From a virus (taxonomy: Duplodnaviria > Caudoviricetes), in IMG/VR virus record IMGVR_UViG_3300044475_000013, positions 1 to 45,115 of that record: a DNA stretch of 45,115 bases; one strand, given 5' to 3'. A model generated the notes under the pieces. That model made no database searches. It was given only the letters and a program-made list of their open reading frames with translations, and was not told the DNA's origin. The stretch's first letter is position 1, and each line of letters begins with the position of its first letter. The position numbers and the translations under genes were made by a program. This document shows, one piece after another, positions 1,533-36,095 of this stretch.

Positions 1533-4415
1533 TTAGTTCATACTGTAGGTCGGTTTCGTAAATGCATCCCAAGTCTTAGGCCCCATAGCTCGGAGTCCAC
1601 CGAGGGAACCAGCACGGGTTAACTGAGATACTTTATTGAAACCGTCACGGTACATCTGGAGGCGTGGATGATTGTCCTTACCACCAAACTTCTGAGTGAT
1701 TTCTTTGTACATGCTGGACTGCTTAAACAGTTCCTCAGCTTGCTTTGGATCAGATTGTGCAACCTTCAGGATACGAGCGTACTGATCAGCACCACCTTGA
1801 CCACCCTGCCATTTAGCATGAGCCAGTGCAATGTAGGAGCTAGCCAGTCCAGTTGCATTAACAGATGCCACAGGCGGTAGATCAGCGTTCTTAATGTCAG
1901 TGCCAAAGTTCTTAAAGTAATCCTTCACGAACTGGCCTTGTACACCGTCGAATGCTTCTTGCCCTTTAGCACGCGCATCATCCAGCTTCTTTTTCCAAGT
2001 TGCACGATCTGGTGTATCAACACGAATGCCAATACCAGTAGTTACAATACCCGGTCGTGATGGGTCAGTTGCTTTGTTGTCAACAGAACCTTCATAACGC
2101 AAGAACGATGCAGCAGTCTTAGTAGCTAGATCACCACCAAAGGTATCCACCCAATCTTGGGTAACTGTCAATTTCTTAGCAGACTTACCGTCTTGTTGAG
2201 TAACAGTACCAATTGGTTGAACCCCTAGATCATGCGTCCGAGCTTTCAGCATATTGTAAGCAACCTCACGCACATGAGATATACCCCATCGCTGCATTTC
2301 AGTAACAGGTTTACCGGATTTATCCGTGGCAACTACCATGAGTTGATTACCCACAGCAGTCAACTGGACATCCTCAGCATCGAACTTTCGACCACCATAA
2401 CCGTTGTACTTCTTTACGTACTGGTCACGGACAGCCTCAAGAGCACCTTGGAAATCCTGATCGTTAAGAGCAACCTCTTTACCACCAGCACCCATAGGCA
2501 CAGTTACACCGTTCCGAATTTGAGGGGTCATTATAACCAAACCAGTGTCGATACTCGTTACACGGTTGAGCTTACGCAATGCAGCAATCTTCTGCCCCGG
2601 TGTCTCAAGGATTGCACCACCAGCAGCCATAGCAGCTAGTTCAGGTCGAGCAGAATCCCAAGACTGGTTCAGAATAGACGCCTTCTGTTGCAGCACATCG
2701 TTACGTGGGTTCTTCCACCAGCGGTCAGCTTTAACTTGACTCTGAGGATCATCACCAAAGAATGGCCAAACATGAGAAGCAAAGAAACCAGATTTCAAAT
2801 CGTCGGCAGTGAACTTACCAGAGCCTACAGCAGAGCTATAGCTACCACCGTGGGAACCACCAGAACCTGTGCCGGTTACTTGTTCTTTGAATCGTTGAAT
2901 CTCTCGCATATCAAATGCAATGTTCTTCCCTGCTTCTGGGTTAGATTGTAGATACGCTTCAACAGCATCTTGAGTTCCCTTATCGCTAAAGGCACCTAGA
3001 GCTTCACGTAGCATACCGGGGTTCTTACCCTTCAGGGATTGCACAATGTCTACAAAGCCGCGCCATGCATCCTTAGATGTTCCATCAACTTGTTCATCGA
3101 TTTTATCAGGATCGCGCTGCATGATGTTTTCAATGGTCGGAGTAAGCTGTTTAAATCCAGCACTGACTACCTTTGGGTTAATGGTTTGAATACCTGTGGC
3201 AACCAAACCTTTAGCCAGTCCAATGTAATCCTCACCAAACTTCTTCGCGTATACCTTCACCAGAGAGTCCGCAGCCTTTGCATCACCATCCGTACCCCAC
3301 TTAGCCGCACGGGCAGCAGGTGTACTGTTCTGAGCAAAGGAACCATCAAGACCTTGTGAATTGATCTTGCTTTCCATTTCCCGAATACGACGCAGCATAG
3401 GCACAACATCTTCATCCTTGAGTAAACCATTCCGGTTATCTAGGATAGCTTGTTGATAGAAGCCAGTGATAGTCGCAGGGTCTGGGGTAATTGAACCACT
3501 CTCAACACCACGCTCGTACTCAATGAAGTTTGCATTCAGAACCATAGCACGATGATCCATTGCACCCTTTTGACCCTTAGCCATAGCCTCCTGAAGATTC
3601 AGATAATCATCTGTTGCTAGACGTTTCTGAGCTTCATCACTACGGGCAAAGTTACCAATAGCGGCAAGGACACGCTGACCTTCTGGAGTTGCAGGGTTTG
3701 CAGTAGCCAGTTGAGCACGCATAGCCTGCACCATCTTCTTGGAAGAATCACCGAGAGGGTCTTTACTACCCAGCATTTTGTTCTGAGTCGTGAGGGTGTC
3801 TAGTCGATCCACCATTAACTTAGTGAATGCTTCTGGTTGATAATCTAGTTCGCGAGCCTTATTGATATCCGTATTGATACCTTGATACTGCGCAGTGTTG
3901 TTGTCCTGCTGAATCTTTGTCTCCCAGCTCTTTTGGTAAGAACTGAAAGCACTAGCATTCAATGTGACATAGCTCTGCAAGGCTTTCTTACGAGCTTCAG
4001 AATTCTCAGGAAACACATCAATATTATCCCGTAGTTCTTGGAGCATAGGTTTGATAGCTTCATGATAATCATCAAGCGTACCGCCCTTCTCCAGAATCTC
4101 CCGTGCAGTTTGAGTTAAACCAGCTTGGGCTTGAGATTCTTTATCTGTGTATTGTTGGAACTGAACACCTTGATTGTAGCTGTCCGGAGTAAGCCAAGAT
4201 GACTCTTTAACTCGGCCAGCAATCTGATCTGTTACACCTTCCATGAAGGCAATGTCATTCGGCTTCTTCTTCTTTTCTACGAACTTGTCGAAGAAAGAGT
4301 CAGCAGCTTTTACTTGTGCCCACGGATCAGTTGGTGTCGGCAGTGAAGCCTGACGAGTCTGCGGATTAAACGAGTACCCACTGGCACCCGCTACACCCGG
4401 TTGTTCAATTGTCAT
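1533..4415 (-). CDS. Internal virion protein (gp15 position) with probable C-terminal lysozyme-like domain
   Basis: 960 aa in the expected syntenic position. C-terminal RYEG-x7-D-x7-TTGIG resembles a T4-lysozyme-type motif, as in phiKMV gp36. Confidence 0.75.
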   Translation of the reverse strand: MTIEQPGVAGASGYSFNPQTRQASLPTPTDPWAQVKAADSFFDKFVEKKKKPNDIAFMEGVTDQIAGRVKESSWLTPDSYNQGVQFQQYTDKESQAQAGLTQTAREILEKGGTLDDYHEAIKPMLQELRDNIDVFPENSEARKKALQSYVTLNASAFSSYQKSWETKIQQDNNTAQYQGINTDINKARELDYQPEAFTKLMVDRLDTLTTQNKMLGSKDPLGDSSKKMVQAMRAQLATANPATPEGQRVLAAIGNFARSDEAQKRLATDDYLNLQEAMAKGQKGAMDHRAMVLNANFIEYERGVESGSITPDPATITGFYQQAILDNRNGLLKDEDVVPMLRRIREMESKINSQGLDGSFAQNSTPAARAAKWGTDGDAKAADSLVKVYAKKFGEDYIGLAKGLVATGIQTINPKVVSAGFKQLTPTIENIMQRDPDKIDEQVDGTSKDAWRGFVDIVQSLKGKNPGMLREALGAFSDKGTQDAVEAYLQSNPEAGKNIAFDMREIQRFKEQVTGTGSGGSHGGSYSSAVGSGKFTADDLKSGFFASHVWPFFGDDPQSQVKADRWWKNPRNDVLQQKASILNQSWDSARPELAAMAAGGAILETPGQKIAALRKLNRVTSIDTGLVIMTPQIRNGVTVPMGAGGKEVALNDQDFQGALEAVRDQYVKKYNGYGGRKFDAEDVQLTAVGNQLMVVATDKSGKPVTEMQRWGISHVREVAYNMLKARTHDLGVQPIGTVTQQDGKSAKKLTVTQDWVDTFGGDLATKTAASFLRYEGSVDNKATDPSRPGIVTTGIGIRVDTPDRATWKKKLDDARAKGQEAFDGVQGQFVKDYFKNFGTDIKNADLPPVASVNATGLASSYIALAHAKWQGGQGGADQYARILKVAQSDPKQAEELFKQSSMYKEITQKFGGKDNHPRLQMYRDGFNKVSQLTRAGSLGGLRAMGPKTWDAFTKPTYSMN

Positions 4416-12593: not shown

Positions 12594-12613
12594 CCCACTG
12601 ATACCTGTGACTT
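12594..12613 (-). promoter_or_regulatory. Candidate phage RNAP late promoter AAGTCACAGGTATCAGTGGG
   Basis: 19/20 identical to 30751-30770; 16/17 core match to 35446-35462; directly upstream of the structural block. Confidence 0.75.
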
Positions 12614-12663: not shown

Positions 12664-15075
12664 TCAGCAGAACATGAAGCGGGATTTTAGTACAACAGTA
12701 ACATCCAGATTGCCATCGAGTGGACGCTCTGGAACGGGTACACCTTCTGGGAAGAACTCGAGTAAACGCTGGGTAACGTCTTCTTGGTACATGTTCGCAA
12801 AGGTGCTACGCAATGAAATGTGCAATGAATCTACATCACACATATGAGTCCCGAAGGAATCATGAATTGGAACGATCTGACCAGCAAAATGATTGATAGT
12901 CATACACAGGTGCGCGCTATCCAGACTATGCACAAAGTTCGGACTGATACCATTGGCTGCGGTTTGCTTGTCGTATTCACCAGTACGCTTACGCATGGTA
13001 ATGGCGACAACACCCATACTACGAATGGCCATCTGTTTAACTTCATGAATCTCAGACCAGTTCAATACCGGAATACCTACCGGACTGAACCAGCGCATAG
13101 GGTCAGGATTTCTACGTGTCAGAGCTTGCAGATACTTCATACCCTCTGCCGCAGCAGGAACAATATCCTCAACAGCATGGCGTAGAGCTTTTGCAACGGG
13201 TACTGACATTTTGTGATAGGTGTAATCTGGAATCTTATCAGCACCAGACTTCATCAGATCATCAGTAACATATTGCAGTGTGCTCATAAGTGTACTGCCA
13301 TAGACATAAGTCATGACAGGTCGCTTTGCCATACTGCGGGGAATCGGACGTAGCTGCCAGAACTGCTGGAGCACTGTATCGCCTTCACAGAAGTCTTGAA
13401 TCAATGGTGCAGCTAATGCACTGGTTGCAGTGTAGATATCAGCTTTCTCGTCAGTTTCCGAATCAATTAGATTCGTGTACTTAGCACCAATGGGGTCACG
13501 GAACATAGCACTGAAGTGCTGTAGCCCCGAGCAAGTAGCATCTTGGGCACAAGGTACGTGGCAGATGTAATCTTCTGGGTATTCCATTTCGAGAGCTTCC
13601 TGTAGAGCTAAACCAGCAGCCAACAGCGTGAATGCTGTATCTTCCTCTGGCGGTTCTACATTCAACGGGTCATTGATGAAGTCACGAATGAAACCCCAAT
13701 TCTCTTCTGTCCATTTAGCTCGTAAGTGAAAGTCCTTCTTGTCATAACCACAGCAATTTGCTACGTGTACTTTTAACCAGAACAAACCACGCGCACCTAG
13801 AGCTTTACCTTCTGCGAACTCAAGGATGCCTTTTACCATGTCGTGAGACTGCGGGTTCAAAGCACTGCGGAAATACAAGCGACCTCTCCAGTCAAAGAAG
13901 CAGGGGAAGTAAATACGCTCTTCATTCAGATACTTTTTAGTTTCGTTGAGTTTCTGAATCAGACCGATCTTTTTACCATTGCGATGTTTCTCAGTGGTGT
14001 ACCAGTCTTTCATCTGGTCTTTCCACTCTTGAAAGATTTCTAGTTCTTTCGGTGTCGCTTTCTTCCTGATCCAGTCATCGTCAAATGGGAACGCTGGTTG
14101 TGGCGCAGAACCATGAGGCGGTAGACCAAGAATACCACGAGGATTTGCCAAGGCTTGAGCCGCAACACGTTGTACCTCTTTGTTGATTCTGTACGGAACA
14201 GACTGTGCTTTATTAGCTGCATCCTTTGCAGCACGGGCACAACCTTCGGACAGATTGTTAATTACCCAATTCCGTTGCTTCTTAGACATACCGCGAATGG
14301 TCATCATTGGAGAATGCACAGCTAGTTCATCCGTGATGTAACCACCTTGATAATGGTTTGTCCATGGACGCGGTTCTACTAGCATTGCAGGGAATCGAAT
14401 AATAGCATTAGCAGCTTCAACTGCTTTGCTCAAATGTTTCTCTAATGCTTCAGATGCTTTGATTGCTTTGTACGGATCACCACGACCTGACGGCAGATCA
14501 AACCACTCGAATAGACCTAGCTCGAAAAGACAGATCAGAAGTAAACGCGCTGTGCCAATCTTTTCATCAGAAGTCCACGGATCAATATCCAATCCAATAT
14601 CCTTAGCACCAGTCCGGTACTTTCGTTGGATATGCGAAATTGAACGTGACGCTTCCTTCTTAACTTGTGCTTCAACCTTCTCGACGTAATACGGATTGAT
14701 GTCAATGATCTTGTCGATCACAGACTCAGTTTCGATTGCGCGTCCGATGTCCCGAAGAACATCCTGCATTAGCATTACATCCGGTCTGGCACAAGCAGCG
14801 ATGATATGGCGAATACCGAGGATACATAGAATCTCAGGGCGTACCCGTCGAAGCATTGCACGATATTTACCACCCGGCCCTGCTGTCCTAGTTTCGAGCA
14901 TTTGCTGTACCAATGGCAAACCATCTTCAAACGCTCTGAGCAGCAGTCGTTTACCGACTCCTGTGTCGTCGGCTCGTCCCTGTTGGAACGCTTCCTGCAT
15001 TTGTTGAATACCACGGAGCATACCTTCATTTGTAGCGGCAAGCTCCATTTCTATTTGCCTGTTCAGCAATGTCAT
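12664..15075 (-). CDS. T7-family single-subunit RNA polymerase (canonical, phiKMV-type position)
   Basis: 803 aa; DWRGRLY, DATCSGLQH, RSMAKRPVMTYVYG, PNFVHSLD, IHDSFG, C-terminal FMFC. Confidence 0.98.
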   Translation of the reverse strand: MTLLNRQIEMELAATNEGMLRGIQQMQEAFQQGRADDTGVGKRLLLRAFEDGLPLVQQMLETRTAGPGGKYRAMLRRVRPEILCILGIRHIIAACARPDVMLMQDVLRDIGRAIETESVIDKIIDINPYYVEKVEAQVKKEASRSISHIQRKYRTGAKDIGLDIDPWTSDEKIGTARLLLICLFELGLFEWFDLPSGRGDPYKAIKASEALEKHLSKAVEAANAIIRFPAMLVEPRPWTNHYQGGYITDELAVHSPMMTIRGMSKKQRNWVINNLSEGCARAAKDAANKAQSVPYRINKEVQRVAAQALANPRGILGLPPHGSAPQPAFPFDDDWIRKKATPKELEIFQEWKDQMKDWYTTEKHRNGKKIGLIQKLNETKKYLNEERIYFPCFFDWRGRLYFRSALNPQSHDMVKGILEFAEGKALGARGLFWLKVHVANCCGYDKKDFHLRAKWTEENWGFIRDFINDPLNVEPPEEDTAFTLLAAGLALQEALEMEYPEDYICHVPCAQDATCSGLQHFSAMFRDPIGAKYTNLIDSETDEKADIYTATSALAAPLIQDFCEGDTVLQQFWQLRPIPRSMAKRPVMTYVYGSTLMSTLQYVTDDLMKSGADKIPDYTYHKMSVPVAKALRHAVEDIVPAAAEGMKYLQALTRRNPDPMRWFSPVGIPVLNWSEIHEVKQMAIRSMGVVAITMRKRTGEYDKQTAANGISPNFVHSLDSAHLCMTINHFAGQIVPIHDSFGTHMCDVDSLHISLRSTFANMYQEDVTQRLLEFFPEGVPVPERPLDGNLDVTVVLKSRFMFC

Positions 15076-15084
15076 CCTGTGTCC

Positions 15085-15387
15085 TTAAAAGGGAATAAAC
15101 TCCACGTCTTTCCACGGCGACACGTACACTTGATCCCCGATATAAATCAGCCGGAATGCAGTGTATTCTGCCAACCACTTTTCGTACTGTTCAGCTTTCG
15201 CTGTGTCCTTCTCAACTGACTGACCTTCTTTCAGACCAGCCCGTGCTCGGTACTTGATACTGTTACCCTTCAGGAAACCTTTGAATTCATCAGGTGTGAA
15301 CTCACGTAGCATCTTCAGGATAGGTTGATCATTACCAAGCTGATTGTAGTGCGGGGAAGTTTCCGCAGTGCCTTTGTCTACTGACAT
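15085..15387 (-). CDS. DUF3310-family protein (T7 gp1.7 nucleotide kinase-like)
   Basis: PHY...EFKGFLKGNSIKY..RAG.K...D..KA..Y pattern. Confidence 0.8.
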   Translation of the reverse strand: MSVDKGTAETSPHYNQLGNDQPILKMLREFTPDEFKGFLKGNSIKYRARAGLKEGQSVEKDTAKAEQYEKWLAEYTAFRLIYIGDQVYVSPWKDVEFIPF

Positions 15388-16022
15388 AATGCCTCCACAG
15401 AATGTGGGTAAACCTGTTCGAGGATAGGCTTCAGTTTCTCAGCGAACTCACGGGCAAAGGTTTGTGCATGCGAGTCGCTACGTTGTTGCCATACTCGATG
15501 AAAGAACAGGATACTACCTGTCCATACAATGTTTGTCATGGTATTCAGTGGGAGTACCAGACGTGCTTCTTCAGGTGCAATACCAACCTTGAGCATTTCA
15601 TTATAGAGTTCCAGACTCATTTGAGAATGTTCCTCCATAGCACTCAGATAACCGCGGCTGTAGTTATGCGTATCTGCACAACCTTGTTTAGCATTCTGTG
15701 GTCGGTTATGCAACTCCGTAGGCATCCAGAACTCAGGTTCGCTGTCGATGTAACGACGGGACTCTTCATTCCAGTTACCACCCACTTGATGCTTGACCAG
15801 TTGACGTGCCAGTGCCAGCGGAACCTTGCAACGAATAGTTACACAGGTATGCGCAAATGGACTCCAGTGTCCATGCTTGGCCAAGTAGTTCAACAGGCGT
15901 TGATCAGATTCAACATCAAATGTATAGACTTGTTTAGCAAAGCTAACACGGGCAGCGTTAACGACATTGATGTCACTACCCATGCTGTCTACCAATTCAA
16001 TTTCAATTGGTGCAATATTCAT
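15378..16022 (-). CDS. thyX: FAD-dependent thymidylate synthase
   Basis: VNAARVSF, HWSPFAH, RQLVKHQ..WNEESRRY, PEEAR.VLP, HAQ. Confidence 0.93.
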   Translation of the reverse strand: MNIAPIEIELVDSMGSDINVVNAARVSFAKQVYTFDVESDQRLLNYLAKHGHWSPFAHTCVTIRCKVPLALARQLVKHQVGGNWNEESRRYIDSEPEFWMPTELHNRPQNAKQGCADTHNYSRGYLSAMEEHSQMSLELYNEMLKVGIAPEEARLVLPLNTMTNIVWTGSILFFHRVWQQRSDSHAQTFAREFAEKLKPILEQVYPHSVEALCQ

Positions 16023-16972
16023 TAGTAAGTCCACTCACCAGTGAGATTGTTCTTGGCGTACTCAGTGCGACGACGTTCAAAGAAGTTACCATCTTCAACA
16101 CCACCCACAATCTGGTCAAACCAAGGGAACGGGTTCTTAGCAGTAATGTCATCTTCTGTGATACCAGCTTGACGCGCACGGCGCTGGGCTTGGAACATCA
16201 AGAATTCGATAACATCATGCAGCTCGATACCTTCGATTGCTTCACCATTGAAACAGTTCTTGGTGAACTGTACTACCAATGGCATCATCAGGGCTTCAAC
16301 TTCGTGGAAGAGTTTCAGTTTCTCTTTCGCAGATAACATGGCGAAAGCTTGGTCGCGCTTGATCAGTTCAGCAATACCTTGAACATGCAAATCTTCGTCG
16401 CGAATACTCCATGCCACAATAGTACAAGTACCATTGAACAGATTGAACCGTTGGAAATTCAGCAGCATTGCAAACAGACCGAACAGCATGGTACCTTCAC
16501 CTAGCAGAGAAGTTGCTACCATTCGACGGAAACGATCCTTGACGTTCTCACCCTTCCAGCGATTCATAGCTTCGTGCAGTTTCAGCAGAACAGGGTCTTG
16601 CATAAATGCACTAAAGATACCATCGCCTAGAGCCAGACTATCGGCCAGATAAGCATAACCAGTAACATGAATAGTTTCACGGTTGGTAAAGCCAACGAGC
16701 ATTTGTCGGATGTATAAGTCATCACGATAGTACCGGAGGTATTCGTCAATATAAGTGTTCTCAACTTCGATGTCAGCTTGAGTAAAGAACAGGGAAATGT
16801 TTTTGATGAAGTCACGCTGGGCTTGAGTTGCCTTTTCCTTCCAGTCTCGAATGTCATCGAGCATCGGAGTCTCTTCAGGCACCCAATGCAGGTGCTCATG
16901 CTTTTGCCAGAGTTCGTGCGCCCACACATTCGGGGACGCACGGAACACATGTTTAGTTTCAATGATGCTCAT
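16022..16972 (-). CDS. nrdB: Class I ribonucleotide reductase beta subunit
   Basis: FFTQAD, RETIH..Y, EG, RDE.LH di-iron motifs; NFFE.R.TEY tail. Confidence 0.95.
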   Translation of the reverse strand: MSIIETKHVFRASPNVWAHELWQKHEHLHWVPEETPMLDDIRDWKEKATQAQRDFIKNISLFFTQADIEVENTYIDEYLRYYRDDLYIRQMLVGFTNRETIHVTGYAYLADSLALGDGIFSAFMQDPVLLKLHEAMNRWKGENVKDRFRRMVATSLLGEGTMLFGLFAMLLNFQRFNLFNGTCTIVAWSIRDEDLHVQGIAELIKRDQAFAMLSAKEKLKLFHEVEALMMPLVVQFTKNCFNGEAIEGIELHDVIEFLMFQAQRRARQAGITEDDITAKNPFPWFDQIVGGVEDGNFFERRRTEYAKNNLTGEWTY

Positions 16973-17023
16973 GCACCACCAATACCTTCAGCCAAACCTG
17001 CACCTTCGATCAGTTGATCTGGA

Positions 17024-18772
17024 TCAGTTTGCACAGGCAAGACATTCATCAGTTGATACATCTTGTACGATTGCATGGACTTTGGTTCCTGTTGTTGCTT
17101 TATGGGATGATAGACCTTTGCTGTAATACAAAGACTTCAAACCCTTGTCAAAGGCTTCGCGGTGAACGCGGCTGTAGACACTCCGAGCTGTTCCCGGCGG
17201 AAAGTACAGATTGACAGACTGAGCTTGGCAGATGTTCGGTTGACGGTCAGCGGCATGCTGGACAATCCAACGTTGATCAAGTTCGTAGGCAGTCTTAAAG
17301 ACTTCTTTCTGATAGTCTGTAAGATATTCCAAATGCTGTACTGAACCTGCATTGATGATAATGCTTGTCCACTCAGATTCGGTGTCACGCCCCAGACTTT
17401 GAAGCAGGGCCTGTAGGTACTTGTTCTTCTCAACGAAAGTTCCGCTTGCAGACTTCCGAATGAATCCGTTTGCAGTGTACGGCTCGATACCGGGTGAAGC
17501 GTCAGCAAAGATGCTGGTACTGGCGTTCGGAGCAATTGCAAGCATGTGCGTGAAAGCAACCCACTTTTCCGGGTTTTCAGGGTAAGCCGCACGGCTAGCA
17601 CCAGAAGGCCCAACCACAGGCACAAGCTCTTTATTGGCAACAGCAGCAGCTTCAGCAATCGCTTTGAAGATTCGCTTGTTAGCTGAGACAGCCATTGCAG
17701 ACGCGAACGGAATGTTCTTTTGCTGTAGGTAGCTATGAAATCCGAGAGCACCAAGTCCGACGTCCCTGTAGAACTCTGCGTTCTTTCTCGCACTTTCAGC
17801 TCCCTCCAGACCAGAGGTAACGAAAGAATCAAGAACAAGCCAAAGATACAATAGGCAATCAGTAATGAATTGCTGAATACCGAAGGCACGGATGTCATCC
17901 CACTTTTCGATATTGAGACTTCCAAGACAGCAAACACCAGTAGCAGGTTCGCCGTTAGGGAGTTCCGTTGCCACAGTAATTTCAGTGCAAAGATTAGACG
18001 TGTAAACGGGTACATTCAAATCCTTCAAGATCTGAGGCCGTTGTGCCATCATGTTCGATTCGTCAATGATGTACGGCTCACCAGTGAAACTTCTGGTTTC
18101 CAGAATTAGTTCCCACAGTCGTCGAGCTTTGATCGTCTCTTTGATTTCCTTAGTATGCGGATCATACAAATGGAAGTCTTGATCAGTGGATACAGCATCC
18201 CGGAACTCTTGGTTGATGACTACACCATGATGCAGGTTCAAGTTCTTGCGATCAAGGTCACCACCAGTGGGCTTGCGCATTTCAATGAACTCTACAATCT
18301 CTGGGTGCCATACAGGCAAGAAGGAAGCATAGGAAGCACGGCGGGAACTACCTTGTGCAAAGGCTGTTACGAGACGATTAATAACAGACTGGAAGGGGAG
18401 CATCCCGTTGCTTCGACTACCTTTTGAAGTAGCACTACCAACAGTCCGCAGTTTGCCCCAATAAGAGCCAACGCCACCACCATTACTAGCAAGCCAGCCA
18501 GTCTCGGTATAGTGCCCAAGAATTCCCCGACGCGAGTCATGAACAGAACTGAGGAAACAAGCGATAGGATTACCGCGACCAGTATCAGCATTTGCCAGAA
18601 CAGGTGTGCTTCCCACAAACCACTGATTGTAAACATAGCGAAGCATCCGTTCTTTGTGTTCACCCGTGCAGTACGCAGTGATACTACGGGTGAAGATATC
18701 AGTAAGGGTGACATCCTGCGGGGCCATGTAGCGGTCCCGCAGAGTCTCCTGTGCAAATTTATTGAGTTGCAT
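17024..18772 (-). CDS. nrdA: Class I ribonucleotide reductase alpha subunit (short, no ATP cone apparent)
   Basis: TPVLAN, ACF, GGGVG, SNLCTEI, APNASTS, SLYY and C-terminal CLAC. Confidence 0.95.
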   Translation of the reverse strand: MQLNKFAQETLRDRYMAPQDVTLTDIFTRSITAYCTGEHKERMLRYVYNQWFVGSTPVLANADTGRGNPIACFLSSVHDSRRGILGHYTETGWLASNGGGVGSYWGKLRTVGSATSKGSRSNGMLPFQSVINRLVTAFAQGSSRRASYASFLPVWHPEIVEFIEMRKPTGGDLDRKNLNLHHGVVINQEFRDAVSTDQDFHLYDPHTKEIKETIKARRLWELILETRSFTGEPYIIDESNMMAQRPQILKDLNVPVYTSNLCTEITVATELPNGEPATGVCCLGSLNIEKWDDIRAFGIQQFITDCLLYLWLVLDSFVTSGLEGAESARKNAEFYRDVGLGALGFHSYLQQKNIPFASAMAVSANKRIFKAIAEAAAVANKELVPVVGPSGASRAAYPENPEKWVAFTHMLAIAPNASTSIFADASPGIEPYTANGFIRKSASGTFVEKNKYLQALLQSLGRDTESEWTSIIINAGSVQHLEYLTDYQKEVFKTAYELDQRWIVQHAADRQPNICQAQSVNLYFPPGTARSVYSRVHREAFDKGLKSLYYSKGLSSHKATTGTKVHAIVQDVSTDECLACAN

Positions 18773-25273: not shown

Positions 25274-25307
25274 TTCAATAACGCGGAAGCCTCATAGAGA
25301 CTTCCGC
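25274..25307. promoter_or_regulatory. Intergenic hairpin with a 15-bp motif shared with 33027-33041
   Basis: TTCAATAACGCGGAA leading into an 11-bp stem. Confidence 0.6.
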
Positions 25308-28346: not shown

Positions 28347-28515
28347 TTCAGGTTAAGACGGAAGAACTGTCAGAGGTTTCATTGACCCACGCCAAGGGGC
28401 CCTTTACTAGCAAGGCCCAGCTATAGTATCCATGACGCATTACTAACTCTGTCTGGTCAGGAAGAAGTCCGGGACGTAACCCAAGACAACTACAGTTCTT
28501 CCGTATTAACCGGAA
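28347..28515. other. Structured intergenic element closed by a 20-bp inverted repeat
   Basis: 28351-28370 and 28492-28511 are 19/20 complementary; internal hairpins present. Confidence 0.7.
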
Positions 28516-30686: not shown

Positions 30687-31083
30687 AGTCTTCCAATCGC
30701 ATTAAGTAACGATGATCTTTGAACATCGTGTAGTTTTCGGGAAGTTGACGCCCACTGATACGTGTGACTTCAACAATTTGGATGGTTTCTTGGCTATCAT
30801 ACAGAGGTGATTCACCAAGGTGGTAAATCTCTGCAATCATAGCTTTTGGCCAGTACAGCATGAAGGATTTCTGGTTGAAATGCTTTGCGAGTGTACGCAG
30901 TGCTGCGTTGCTCGTTGATACCTCTTCCAGATGCCATGTCAACTCACGTACACCATTATAAGAACCCACAACTGTTTGCAGGTTCTTACCATAGTGTTGC
31001 AAGAGCTTACCGAGTTCACAGTGTCGGCGGACAAGCGCAAGCTCGTCCATCCCTTCGGAACTAGCAGAAATCAGGAGGTGCAT
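30670..31083 (-). CDS. S-adenosylmethionine lyase-like protein (T3 gp0.3 family)
   Basis: LISA...RH..L, G.Y...E.T and LA....Q....Y align by eye with T3 SAMase; early-region position. Confidence 0.65.
   Translation of the reverse strand: MHLLISASSEGMDELALVRRHCELGKLLQHYGKNLQTVVGSYNGVRELTWHLEEVSTSNAALRTLAKHFNQKSFMLYWPKAMIAEIYHLGESPLYDSQETIQIVEVTRISGRQLPENYTMFKDHRYLMRLEDYVPST
30751..30770 (-). promoter_or_regulatory. Candidate phage RNAP middle promoter AAGTCACACGTATCAGTGGG
   Basis: 19/20 identical to 12594-12613; upstream of the replication genes. Confidence 0.75.
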
Positions 31084-32729: not shown

Positions 32730-33065
32730 GCCAGCTAGCCGACGCGTTCGATACGGTAGAGGACTAGCTGGCTAAGATAGGAGATAACCAGAAAAGAAGG
32801 CGGGCCTTGCACCCGCATGTCTTAAAGGCTGTGGTTGACGCGAACGTAGGTTCGCCAACTCTCGACCTAAGAGTCACCTTACTAGCAATGAAGTCTAGCC
32901 TAGGATTTTGTTAAAGAGAACAGACGCCCTGCTTGGGCCGAATGAAGTCCTGTCTGCCTCAACGAAGATAAGCAGCTTTGACACCTAGACAGGTGCATAC
33001 CCGGATTTACGGTTTATGCTTCTTTCTTCAATAACGCGGAACTCTCGAAGAGAGTTTCGTTGAGG
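32730..33065. ncRNA. Candidate structured non-coding RNA region
   Basis: No ORF of 60 aa or more in the track. Nested stems include CCTCAACGAA/TTCGTTGAGG, GCATA/TATGC, GCGAAC/GTTCGC and GCCAGCTAG/CTAGCTGGC. Confidence 0.35.
32791..32816 (-). terminator. Intrinsic terminator-like hairpin
   Basis: GCGGG-7nt-CCCGC-CUUCUUUU. Confidence 0.55.
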
Positions 33066-33240
33066 TTACAAGTAGAGGACACGTTGTGTAGCGACGGTTT
33101 TCGGGGAGTCCAGAGGGCGCAGCCCTTTGGTCAAAATGTTTTTAGGTGTACCGCTAGGTACACATTGTCTGAGCGCCGAAGGCGCGAAGCGAAAATTTTA
33201 GGATATGCTAATACAATGAATCACTGATATACCAGACGTT

Positions 33241-33265
33241 AAAAAGGGCCTGCAAGTGCAGACCC
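33241..33265 (-). terminator. Terminator after the mini-RNAP gene
   Basis: GGGUCUGC-ACUU-GCAGGCCC-UUUUU, 8 nt after the stop codon. Confidence 0.85.
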
Positions 33266-33273
33266 GTTGTGAA

Positions 33274-34980
33274 TTATTCTTGATCAAGGAAATGCGGCAT
33301 ACGGCGCGGGTTAATCCACAAAATATCTTTGTGCGGTAGGCCGATTACCTCGCGCATTCCGTCCAGCTCTTCTGATGCCACGATGCCGCAAAATACCGAC
33401 CATGCAATGCTGAGAAATTCCGGGACATCCGCTGCACTGTCTAGAGTGAAAGAATCATGCACCCCTACAATCGTTTTACCAGTGCGCTTGTGATATTCGG
33501 CTTGCACCATCGCCATGAAGGCAGCATCAAGGGACTGGATGAAGTTAGCAGCGGCGGCTACGATTGCAGAGCGGTTGTCCTCTGCATCGCGGTCAACCTT
33601 CACAATACCTGTACGCTCTTTGAACGTGACAGCAGTGGGAATGTACTCGTTAGAACTCTCGCCAGTTTTCCATTGCTCAGATGCTGTTACCCAGTAGTTC
33701 TGTTTCACGGTGAAACCAGACGGTGTTACCCATTCAAGCTGTTTACCTTCTTCTGCCAGATTTCCGGCTGCATTACTGGCATGTTTCTTGACTACATTCA
33801 ATCCGTCATACGTGGTCAGAACGTCCACGATAGCGGCGGCTGCGTCAACGTCTTGGCCTTCTTCTTGTGCCATCTGCAAAGCACGGTCGCGGCTGGTTTC
33901 ATCGCCGCTGCCGTAGGCTTTAGGCATCAAGTACGACTTAGCTACAGCACGTTCAAATGAATCTTTTGCAGGGCAGGCATTACCGCTTGCGAGTGCATAA
34001 ACATTACCGTAGAAGTCTTTCACGTTATCAGTGAAGTTCAAGAGGTTGCAGGCATCAGCCAATGCACGGTCGCCAGTTACTACGCTAATGAATTGTGCAA
34101 AGGATGCAGTAGAATCATAAGTGACTTGATCGTCATGACCGAGAATATAACCGGCTACGCCACCGGCCTGTGGATTCAGCATACCGGACACGTAATAAAG
34201 ACGGCCACGAAAGTCTGCTTTCACCTGATAGTGCCAGCCGTTAGGCTTCTGGCTGTAGGCAATGCGGGCGCTTGCAAGTGCCTGACGTTGTGCTTCTAGC
34301 TTTGCAATGTCTGCATCAGACACGGCCATAGTCCAGCAGTTTTTACGGTTCAGGAAATAACCCTTTGCCAGCCATTCACTACATTCTTTAGCGCGGCGGA
34401 TGTTCACAGTGAAACGGTGAGCAGACATTGCCATTGCACCATCGTGATGCACAGTGCCAGCCTTGATGAAACGCGGGAGGATGCACGGCTCGTCATGCAG
34501 CATATGCATAATAGTCTGCTTGAGCATACCGCTATTAAGTACATAACGAGCGGGCAAAGTGTTCTCACCCAGTTGTTCTTCTGGTTGATACAGCATCCAG
34601 CCATCAGCGACCCAAGCTTGGATAAATCGCTTTGCAATGTTGCGGTATGCTCTCCAATCCTCTGCGTCGTCACACAGGGAAGCGCCATCATCCAGCATGA
34701 TAACCGTTGCAGTCTCTTTAATTACAAATTGAGCTGACTTCTCAGTGTACAATCCGGCGGACAAAGTATCTGCAAATACTGACATAAATACGTGTAATTG
34801 TTCTTTGTCCAGCATTTGGAAATCAGCGCCATTGAAATAAGCGGCGACAGAGCCTGTGAGGCGCACGGTTTCCACGATACGCGACAGAGCCATACCATCG
34901 TAAATGGCATCAACAGGCAGGCCATTATCATTTTGGTTCAGGTCACGTTGGGAGCGGGAGCTAGAATTCATGGAGTTCAT
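33274..34980 (-). CDS. Second, reduced T7-family single-subunit RNA polymerase
   Basis: 568 aa; D256FRGRLY, motif A D289STASFAQ, motif B R344-x3-K-x7-Y356G, WVTPSG, ANFIQSLD, motif C VHD509SF; AAGGA RBS. Confidence 0.92.
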   Translation of the reverse strand: MNSMNSSSRSQRDLNQNDNGLPVDAIYDGMALSRIVETVRLTGSVAAYFNGADFQMLDKEQLHVFMSVFADTLSAGLYTEKSAQFVIKETATVIMLDDGASLCDDAEDWRAYRNIAKRFIQAWVADGWMLYQPEEQLGENTLPARYVLNSGMLKQTIMHMLHDEPCILPRFIKAGTVHHDGAMAMSAHRFTVNIRRAKECSEWLAKGYFLNRKNCWTMAVSDADIAKLEAQRQALASARIAYSQKPNGWHYQVKADFRGRLYYVSGMLNPQAGGVAGYILGHDDQVTYDSTASFAQFISVVTGDRALADACNLLNFTDNVKDFYGNVYALASGNACPAKDSFERAVAKSYLMPKAYGSGDETSRDRALQMAQEEGQDVDAAAAIVDVLTTYDGLNVVKKHASNAAGNLAEEGKQLEWVTPSGFTVKQNYWVTASEQWKTGESSNEYIPTAVTFKERTGIVKVDRDAEDNRSAIVAAAANFIQSLDAAFMAMVQAEYHKRTGKTIVGVHDSFTLDSAADVPEFLSIAWSVFCGIVASEELDGMREVIGLPHKDILWINPRRMPHFLDQE

Positions 34981-35217
34981 TTGTGTATCCTTCTTTCTGG
35001 TTAATCATCACTTCGGACGAGGTATCGGTCGCGGTACAATCCGTGATAGACATGCATTAGGCTGCGAGTGCAACACCACAGCCCTTTAGGGTTAGAATTG
35101 TTTTGCGCGGGTTATGCAAAAGAATTCTAAGTGTTGCAGTCGTTGCCGCATGGCTATAGGATTTGTACCAATAGCGACCAGATAGCTCAGTCCGAAGATT
35201 AAGCAGAAGGAATACAA
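34981..35217. repeat. Long imperfect inverted repeat (rod-like hairpin) abutting the mini-RNAP start codon
   Basis: About ten collinear complementary blocks around a 9-nt loop at 35107-35115. Confidence 0.9.
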
Positions 35218-35445
35218 CTTAGAACGCAATGAAGCTTTTAGGTAATGCGCAGCATTACACACGAAGCGCAGCGTAGTTCATCTATGCTTTTAACAGAGGA
35301 ACATCTATAGCAATAATGCTGAAAGCTCGCAGAGCTTTTAGCTCTATCCTACCTAGCATAATAGATGAAATACAAGGATAAACTGTTGTTAATTATCGCT
35401 ATGAAATAGCGATGATCTTGATAGAAATTGAGGGGTCGAAATCAG

Positions 35446-35465
35446 AAGTCACACGTATCAGTAGA
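35446..35465 (+). promoter_or_regulatory. Candidate phage RNAP promoter in reverse orientation, AAGTCACACGTATCAGTAGA
   Basis: GAAGTCACACGTATCAGT is identical over 18 bp to the minus-strand copy at 30754-30771. Confidence 0.7.
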
Positions 35466-35519
35466 ATAGTAGAATGGAAACCAAGCGAACGAGGACAGCC
35501 GAAGGCTCCGCAGAGAGCG

Positions 35520-36075
35520 CCATAGTTACACAGTGCTATCCATGATTGATAACAGTGATAATCAGTATGTATCACAGAGAGAACAATAGTATGTAATCTA
35601 GTGTACAAAAGAGTGATAACAATAGTGTACAACAGAGAATACAACAGAGAGAACACAGATAGTAAACACAGAGTACAACAGTGAATGACACAGGATAACA
35701 ACAGGGTGACTAATAGTAACTACATAATCACAGGATAGTAATCACAGGGTGAGGTGTGGTGGGGCTAGAGAGCAAAAGAAGTATGCACCCACGAGCACAC
35801 GGATAGACCGATAGCCACAGCACAACAGGTGAACACAGGAGTAACCACAGAGGTAAACACAGATGAACACAGATGAACACAGGGTGACCGTCAGTAACCA
35901 GAGTAACGAGGGTGCCATGGGGGAAAACTCTGGTTGAGGAGGGAGAGACACCCTCGCATAAATATAATAAAATTGGTAGCAACAATACACTCGAACTCTG
36001 ACACACTAGTACAACAGATCACCACAGATAAACACAGCTTACTATCTCAGTAACTATAGTAACTATCTCAGTACC
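35520..36075. repeat. A/C-rich degenerate short-repeat region; probable genome terminus / terminal-repeat zone
   Basis: Many ACACAG/ACAACAG units, three tandem AACACAG(ATG) from 35856, ACTATCTCAGTA twice; lies between the last and first genes. Confidence 0.65.
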
Positions 36076-36095
36076 ATTAAACAAAAATAGTATCC

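Follow-up and report, generated by a model that had tools for sequence, protein, structure and literature searches.

A rod-like fold-back was identified directly upstream of a short T7-type RNA polymerase gene in a phage genome, within a window comprising the whole 45,115-nucleotide stretch of IMG/VR record IMGVR_UViG_3300044475_000013. The rod is a real, selected fold-back of the template strand. Its most probable role is that of an Frpo-type single-strand promoter for the first gene, the short polymerase, a tentative reading whose probability we put a little below even. The parts of the rod are as follows.
34967 to 35233, + strand (template strand of all genes): rod-like fold-back obtained by folding, approximately 100 bp with bulges, about 270 bases.
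34967 to 35106, + strand: gene-proximal arm, the template arm in the proposed model, spanning codons 1-5, the ribosome-binding site (RBS) and the 5' leader.
35116 to 35233, + strand: gene-distal arm, the non-template arm in the model.
35081 to 35092, + strand: side hairpin at a three-way junction with a TTTA loop, replaced by a C-GTA-G triloop in the related locus L005 and in contigs of runs X7 and X9.
34988 to 34994, - strand: RBS AGAAGGA, paired in read-through RNA and largely free in RNA beginning at 35032.
34951 to 34980, - strand: single-copy leader MNSxNSxSRS, which travels with the rod and seems conserved at the nucleotide level.

Folding of positions 34975-35225 gave -115.7 kcal/mol with RNA parameters (z -12.2) and -70.0 kcal/mol with DNA parameters (z -14.0) for the + strand, and -99.3 (z -10.0) and -54.3 kcal/mol (z -9.7), respectively, for the - strand, with none of 200 shuffled sequences as stable in each case. 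The rod also accounted for the two lowest of 898 GC-corrected windows along the genome (z -5.3 and -5.1, the next being -3.0). The first-pass annotation had listed eleven paired blocks and a CCC-TTTA-GGG side hairpin; all are present and pair collinearly, as are the four single G.G mismatches it described on the + strand, and the AGAAGGA RBS is indeed paired in read-through mRNA. Its placement of the rod base at the start codon has to be corrected, as pairing runs on through codons 1-5 to 34967/35233. Opening the buried RBS and start codon costs 11.4 and 12.5 kcal/mol in read-through RNA, compared with 4-5 kcal/mol in RNA from 35032. The longest unbroken helix in the sense RNA of the window is 9 bp, and G.U accounts for just 4/95 and 5/101 of the pairs. 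Among the matches listed, the side hairpin in contigs of runs X7 and X9 differs from that of the window by absence of 35085 and by T35086G. Pairing accounts for codons 1-5 of the leader only; codons 6-16 (window 34935-34966) are conserved past the paired base and are also seen in an unrelated 71-aa ORF of L005. The leader begins 13 of 70 family proteins, two of which belong to a cluster otherwise lacking it.

The window represents a complete-looking Autographiviridae-like genome with its main genes on the - strand, encoding primase, helicase, ligase, DNA polymerase, T7-type structural proteins, an exonuclease and an 803-aa RNA polymerase. The nearest isolate by terminase is Aeromonas phage PS (61%), followed by Vibrio phages (59%), and the host is presumably gammaproteobacterial. 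Features relevant to transcription outside the rod are listed below.
12664 to 15075, - strand: full-length 803-aa T7-type RNA polymerase, the main enzyme, at the end of the replication module.
33274 to 34980, - strand: 568-aa single-subunit T7-type RNA polymerase-like gene, the first gene after the left-end non-coding region.
33246 to 33265, - strand: intrinsic-terminator-like site after the short polymerase gene, present in 4/4 aligned relatives.
12595-12613 (- strand), 30752-30770 (- strand) and 35446-35464 (+ strand): putative promoter copies for the main polymerase in the window.
35446 to 35464, + strand: the leftward one of these copies, pointing away from the rod.
A non-coding stretch with short repeats (35235-36090) comes after the lysis genes, and gene order puts the physical genome ends within it, which would place the rod within about 1 kb of the left end; judged in the same way, the rod probably sits in the genome end that enters first. 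The same promoter arrangement, including the leftward left-end copy, was observed in G002, G003 and G007, each with its own sequences. A left-end element at window 35939-35973, a candidate end-processing or packaging signal, is shared with L001, L002, L004-L007, L239, L241 and L242, in phages with or without the short polymerase. Elsewhere, ribonucleotide reductase subunits and thymidylate synthase are encoded at 16022-18772 and 15378-16034; a 24-nt inverted repeat (28347-28370 / 28492-28515, 92% complementary, 121 nt apart) lies in the gap before the primase gene; and a repeat designated D17 forms two related short hairpins (25274-25306 and 33027-33059, the second with a GAA triloop on the + strand) that are candidate RNase III sites.

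The label 'mini-RNAP' previously given to the adjacent gene agrees with the predicted protein, which has both the motifs and the fold of T7 polymerase. Catalytic motifs are invariant in 25/25 homologues of 539-590 aa, namely D256-R258-G259-R260 (DxxGR), D289 (motif A), R344/K348/Y356/G357 (motif B) and H508/D509 (motif C). The predicted structure (pLDDT 87) aligns with T7 polymerase 3e2e at Z 23.9 and rmsd 6.1 over 502 residues, and with N4 mini-vRNAP at Z 16.4. By motifs and modelled fold the product is thus probably a T7-type single-subunit RNA polymerase, with RNA synthesis as its putative activity. More distant members are 479-560 aa long. No relatives of the short polymerase were detected among 50,697 annotated phage records or in GTDB genomes. 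Past the terminator lies a conserved, structured intergenic block (window 33090-33200; L001 5700-5820; equivalents in L003, L004 and L002) with a CCARAGGG..CCCTYTGG hairpin and GNA loops nearby, devoid of a sigma70 consensus in 4/5 phages; it is a candidate promoter for the short polymerase.

Seven loci with a short polymerase, representing six distinct phages, were examined for the rod, and a homologous structure was found in L005 alone (3483-3767, 66% identical), with z values of -13.2 (antisense) and -10.6 (sense) as RNA and -13.7 (antisense) and -11.1 (sense) as DNA. Comparison of these two full rod sequences, on which the covariation is based, gave 88 aligned pairs, 64 the same, 20 double-changed and 4 single-changed. 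This count derives from a helix-by-helix ladder alignment fitted to the folds, in which every column is a pair by design; with MAFFT or simple pairwise alignment the middle helix is misplaced, giving 8-11 double changes with 10 apparent breaks. As an independent check, random divergence at the observed level reduced stability to -67 +/- 7 kcal/mol (best of 200: -88), compared with the -122 kcal/mol observed. Among the matches listed, near-identical copies occur in contigs of runs X6, X7 and X9, and record 6 of X9 keeps just two central blocks, its base having been rewritten yet remaining complementary. The over-long, miscalled N-terminus of P0198 reads as the same rod arm, its spacer being equally long. 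Further full copies were sought by blastn of the window and L005 rods in phages and by pattern scans of viral contigs and genomes, and L005 was the only one among the matches listed; folding of at least 236 pattern matches revealed rods in the window and L005 alone among the matches listed, and at 29 loci from later contig and genome pattern scans a rod was present in the L005 contig only (80/110 and 80/120 pattern-scan loci had full flanks). No model match was obtained for L298. A sequence-only rod model matched none of nine other records (G001-G004, G006, G007, PS, L006 and L242), and sliding folds of G002-G004 gave no comparable rod, with windows of 63 and 72 long-range pairs present.

Five of these records, G001-G004 and L006, carry the short polymerase with no rod. 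In L005 the rod covers the RBS of the 71-aa ORF, for which no homologue was found, and not that of the polymerase, and the L005 polymerase gene is 91% identical to that of L002, the upstream TATAAT block having been swapped for the rod. The rod behaves as an exchangeable cassette. A different conserved structured block of approximately 130 nt, containing GAA-loop hairpins, stands in its place before the TATAAT promoter in L001 (3685-3820), L002 (3695-3830) and L006 (3690-3825).

Mismatches within the helices were used to determine which strand is under selection, and were counted on a sense-strand Watson-Crick skeleton to avoid bias. All 16 strand-informative mismatches favour the + strand, being 6 G.A, 5 G.G and 5 G.T with no C.T, C.C or A.C, and the same sites in mRNA become 5 A.C, 5 C.C and 6 C.U with no G.U. 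By our own count about 13 of the 16 are independent, three being shared by descent. Local G/(G+C) is 0.54-0.56, and p for twelve such events is 0.003-0.02 even if 0.62 is assumed; mutation that itself favours one strand could contribute to the bias. The preference for the + strand reported in the first-pass annotation is thus borne out, although 'slight' understates it. G.U pairs should accumulate in a structure that acts as mRNA; the rod has none at these sites, and a uniform mismatch bias towards the + strand makes an mRNA lock unlikely as the selected feature. The surroundings of the rod also contain small hairpins, among them the following.
35242 to 35258, + strand: 7-bp DNA mini-hairpin with a C-GCA-G loop; C-GTA-G in L005, with the outer pair changed from G-C to C-G.
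35322 to 35338, + strand: 7-bp DNA mini-hairpin with a C-GCA-G loop.
35395 to 35413, + strand: 8-bp hairpin with a GAA loop, having a GGA-loop homologue in L001, L002, L005 and L006.
C-GNA-G triloop hairpins with stems of at least 4 bp number 11 on the + strand and 0 on the - strand, with all four middle bases used, and one lies inside the rod in L005, X7 and X9, where the window has its TTTA loop. Those with stems of at least 6 bp were present in 5/6 records with the short polymerase and 0/3 without, the records not being independent. A reading of these loops as UNCG RNA tetraloops was ruled out, the stems being perfect in the triloop register. In the accessible text of the sources, the C-GNA-G loop is described as a DNA stability motif at ssDNA origins and N4 promoters (PMC13037366, PMC4496689), with weaker RNA counterparts (PMC13037366). 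The triloop bias is accordingly suggestive of DNA, rather than RNA, as the acting molecule.

The folded + strand presents elements resembling a sigma70 promoter, which are given here together with the competing sites.
35116 to 35130, + strand: A+T-rich helix upstream of the -35-like box, probably UP-like.
35134 to 35139, + strand: -35-like TTGCAG (TTGTAT in L005), within an invariant GTGTTG/CAACAC helix.
35157 to 35162, + strand: -10-like TAGGAT, identical in L005 and X9 record 6.
35039 to 35044, - strand: ACGGAT, mirroring the -10 box on the sense strand; in both phages its TTG lies 23 nt away.
35170 to 35173, + strand: conserved AATA(A) bulge, facing the predicted transcription start.
35032, - strand: predicted +1 (G), 52 nt upstream of the ATG (53 in L005).
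35346 to 35375, - strand: ordinary duplex promoter candidate TTGTAT-18-TAGGAT (7/12), 120 nt upstream of the rod.
The spacer from TTG to TAGGAT on the distal arm is 17 nt in the window and 16 nt in L005, and the predicted +1 G lies six bases past the box in both. In both phages the distal + arm bears the pattern TTG-16/17-TAnnnT, which is absent from the other combinations of arm and strand (0/6), and the boxes are conserved between the two phages while the spacer pairs covary; X9 record 6 also keeps the -35 and -10 blocks, among the matches listed. The A of TAGGAT is the weakest-paired base of its helix (p 0.43 and 0.61). The ACGGAT mirror lacks -12T and -11A and, with its 23-nt spacer, departs from the promoter consensus in duplex DNA. 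The distal-arm boxes match 7/12 consensus bases and were picked after the fact, such a motif being found in approximately 5% of resampled arms. Two further candidates were rejected, a -10 in the leader (TAGAAT with no -35, which would not survive in P0008) and a proximal-arm promoter on the + strand (TACAAT, which L005 does not retain). Four 8/12 duplex promoter sites are also present on the sense strand, where none of 9/12 or better was found in the left end of the window; given these and the upstream duplex site of the same grade as the rod boxes, the gene may be able to do without the rod. In 4/4 relatives devoid of the rod, a perfect TATAAT immediately precedes the same polymerase gene (TTGACA-18-TATAAT in L004), and three relatives without the short polymerase carry two TTGACA early promoters each. 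An early promoter of G007 combines TTGACA-17 with TAGGAT as its -10.

These observations are consistent with a model in which the + strand near the left genome end becomes unpaired and folds, the distal arm providing the -35 and -10 boxes of a non-template strand, spaced by 16-17 bp. Host sigma70 polymerase would melt the helix where pairing is weak, at the -10 box, and initiate at G35032, next to the AATA bulge. RNA from 35032 would lack the partner arm, so its RBS would be free, and read-through RNA would remain locked. Of the three roles suggested in the first-pass annotation, the Frpo-like promoter is thus the best supported, with the host enzyme as its probable reader in place of the adjacent polymerase. 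A single-stranded stage is not known for T7-like phages, which weighs against this model. Single-stranded DNA might arise by resection (5'-to-3') of the left end on entry or during replication, a process that would spare the + strand and for which the phage-encoded exonuclease is a possible agent, by a leftward replication fork, or by SSB-assisted extrusion as at N4 early promoters. Extrusion from duplex DNA costs approximately +236 kcal/mol against some 190 kcal/mol gained at a superhelical density of -0.06, and is unfavourable at ordinary supercoiling. Nicks are known from the phiKMV genome, according to the accessible text of PMC3517423 and 10.1101/619015, and were set aside here as a source of single strands.

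One alternative is an mRNA element, in line with the first-pass annotation, which had proposed a translational lock released by RNase III: RNA arriving from upstream would fold so as to cover RBS and start codon until RNase III or a protein freed translation. T7-type RNase III processing hairpins likewise stand right before early-gene RBSs, the sense RNA of the rod does fold (z -10) and bury the RBS and start codon at the opening costs given above, a duplex promoter candidate lies upstream and the rod base ends on a translation start in both phages. Burial of the RBS, then, stands; selection on the mRNA strand does not, as the symmetric mismatches of the sense strand include no G.U and the start covered in L005 is not that of the polymerase. 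The rod is in addition several times longer than T7-type processing hairpins, its longest sense-RNA helix reaches only 9 bp, and the other candidate processing hairpins of this genome (D17) are only about 33 nt, and we regard this explanation as unlikely. If the + strand were itself transcribed, an antisense RNA rod of approximately 270 nt could act on host polymerase in the manner of 6S RNA, as decoy or template, or else regulate the first gene. The + strand folds better as RNA too, a promoter-shaped RNA would need the same boxes, GGAG in the conserved leader could be a 5' end, and 6S RNA (SsrS) is a rod of similar size able to mimic a promoter. The 6S-like role put forward earlier nevertheless fails on the absence of an Rfam match, of a large central bubble and of a conserved antisense promoter: the sole + strand main-polymerase promoter lies beyond the rod, and one weak upstream sigma70 site is present in the window and none in L005. 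The scarcity of G.U pairs and the absence of a conserved U-tract terminator after the rod also weigh against an antisense RNA; we consider this reading slightly less probable than the mRNA lock.

The same strand and DNA evidence that favours a promoter for host polymerase would also suit a signal for the short polymerase itself, in which the folded + strand DNA acts as an N4-type hairpin promoter (side hairpin plus CC start) or as a priming site near the left end. N4 early promoters are, in the accessible text of PMC4496689, GNA-loop DNA hairpins specific to the template strand and located at the left end of the genome, the partner strand being the weaker one, and they adjoin an early single-subunit polymerase system. 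Such a GNA loop closed by C-G is present on the template strand in the hairpins that flank the rod and, for L005, X7 and X9, in the side hairpin as well, stems of at least 6 bp track the short polymerase (in records that are not independent), and the protein model aligns with N4 mini-vRNAP. Against this, the enzyme is present without a rod in G001-G004 and L006, the window side loop is TTTA, and the N4 spacing of four A between stem and +1, with conservation from -17 to +1, is not kept, the flanks differing between hairpins and between phages. N4 stems measure 5-7 bp and are read by a 3,500-aa virion enzyme (PMC4496689, accessible text), compared with approximately 100 bp in the rod. Sequence is conserved over about 55 bp, more than the footprint of a T7-type enzyme, and a signal of this kind is about as improbable as the mRNA lock. 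Finally, in plain duplex DNA the distal-arm boxes form a collinear leftward promoter, and they may be just that, the fold being either the remnant of an inverted duplication that copying between the arms has maintained or a structure that acts as a cruciform or R-loop when genome ends are replicated or packaged. Phages of this group commonly have leftward phage promoters at their left end, the boxes of the distant loci L299-L302 described below also point leftward in duplex DNA, and inverted repeats can acquire apparent covariation through template switching. The bulges, the side hairpin and the lengths of the spacers have, however, been kept instead of corrected, and arm-to-arm copying would not yield a strand bias of 16 to 0; of the explanations considered, this is the one to which we give the least weight.

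Unrelated fold-backs were observed upstream of distant short polymerases, in each case on the antisense (template) strand.
L299, 2599 to 2785; L300, 2596 to 2782; L301, 1071 to 1257; L302, 2265 to 2451; template strand: fold-backs upstream of distant short polymerases.
All four carry near-consensus boxes on the template strand, TTGACA-17-TAAAAT or TAAACT, in which the -10 lies within a bubble and the mirror copy is dead. Three of the loci are close kin and favour the template strand; L302 has no strand preference. The boxes are on the other arm than in the window, and an ordinary promoter also precedes the gene. Each of the four records includes an 808-811-aa frame matching the N-terminal family of the main polymerase, weakly in three.

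Frpo/ssi promoters were reportedly the subject of work by Masai and Arai in 1997. In the accessible text of more recent sources they are described from F, ColIb-P9 and pESBL, in classes 1-3 (PMC9849209, PMC12672017, PMC11541004), as large imperfect stem-loops on the template strand directly upstream of the first-expressed gene, the fold uniting -35 and -10 boxes and an A+T-rich stretch. On this layout, compared from text descriptions, the rod is similar, being a long, stable stem-loop formed by the template strand of the gene downstream. It differs in its weak boxes and in its context, as Frpo/ssi lie in the leading region of conjugative elements that enter as single-stranded DNA and the rod lies in a lytic-type T7-like dsDNA phage, and no sequence likeness was detected by blastn in 72,556 plasmids at E 1. 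The rod may work like Frpo, with the tentative probability stated at the outset, but does not belong to that class by homology or context. In the literature found, as far as its accessible text goes, Frpo-type promoters are reported from conjugative DNA and hairpin promoters from N4, and no Frpo-type element in a T7-like phage was encountered in the literature searched, most of which was available without subscription.

The 480-590-aa T7-type polymerases form an undescribed-looking family whose genes lie at or near the start of the early region, alongside a full-length polymerase. A literature search for two-polymerase T7-like phages returned PMC12361551 alone, which describes marine Autographiviridae with two RNA polymerase genes in groups AG-10.1 and AG-14. 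According to its accessible text, these likewise combine a typical 800-aa polymerase with a shorter divergent one, located upstream of the typical one in AG-10.1. Compared by description, their second enzymes are larger, at approximately 650 aa, and that text describes no promoter or fold-back for them (PMC12361551).

Taken further than the rod itself, these data could mean that in one branch of lytic T7-like phages the programme begins on single-stranded DNA. The template strand of the end that enters first would be exposed, fold into a host promoter and switch on a compact second polymerase; this enzyme would replace the usual strong host promoters and transcribe the early region from GNA hairpins until the main polymerase takes over. 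We regard this fuller scheme as doubtful, though less so than the alternatives to the promoter reading weighed above. Were the promoter reading true, the left end of some of these phages would be single-stranded at a defined time and used as a switch, a state absent from the T7 model, and under the fuller scheme the unrelated fold-backs beside distant short polymerases would indicate that such an arrangement arose more than once. The promoter reading also ties a testable DNA signal to uncharacterised T7-type polymerases of approximately 560 aa, some 300 residues shorter than that of T7, which are of both mechanistic and biotechnological interest.
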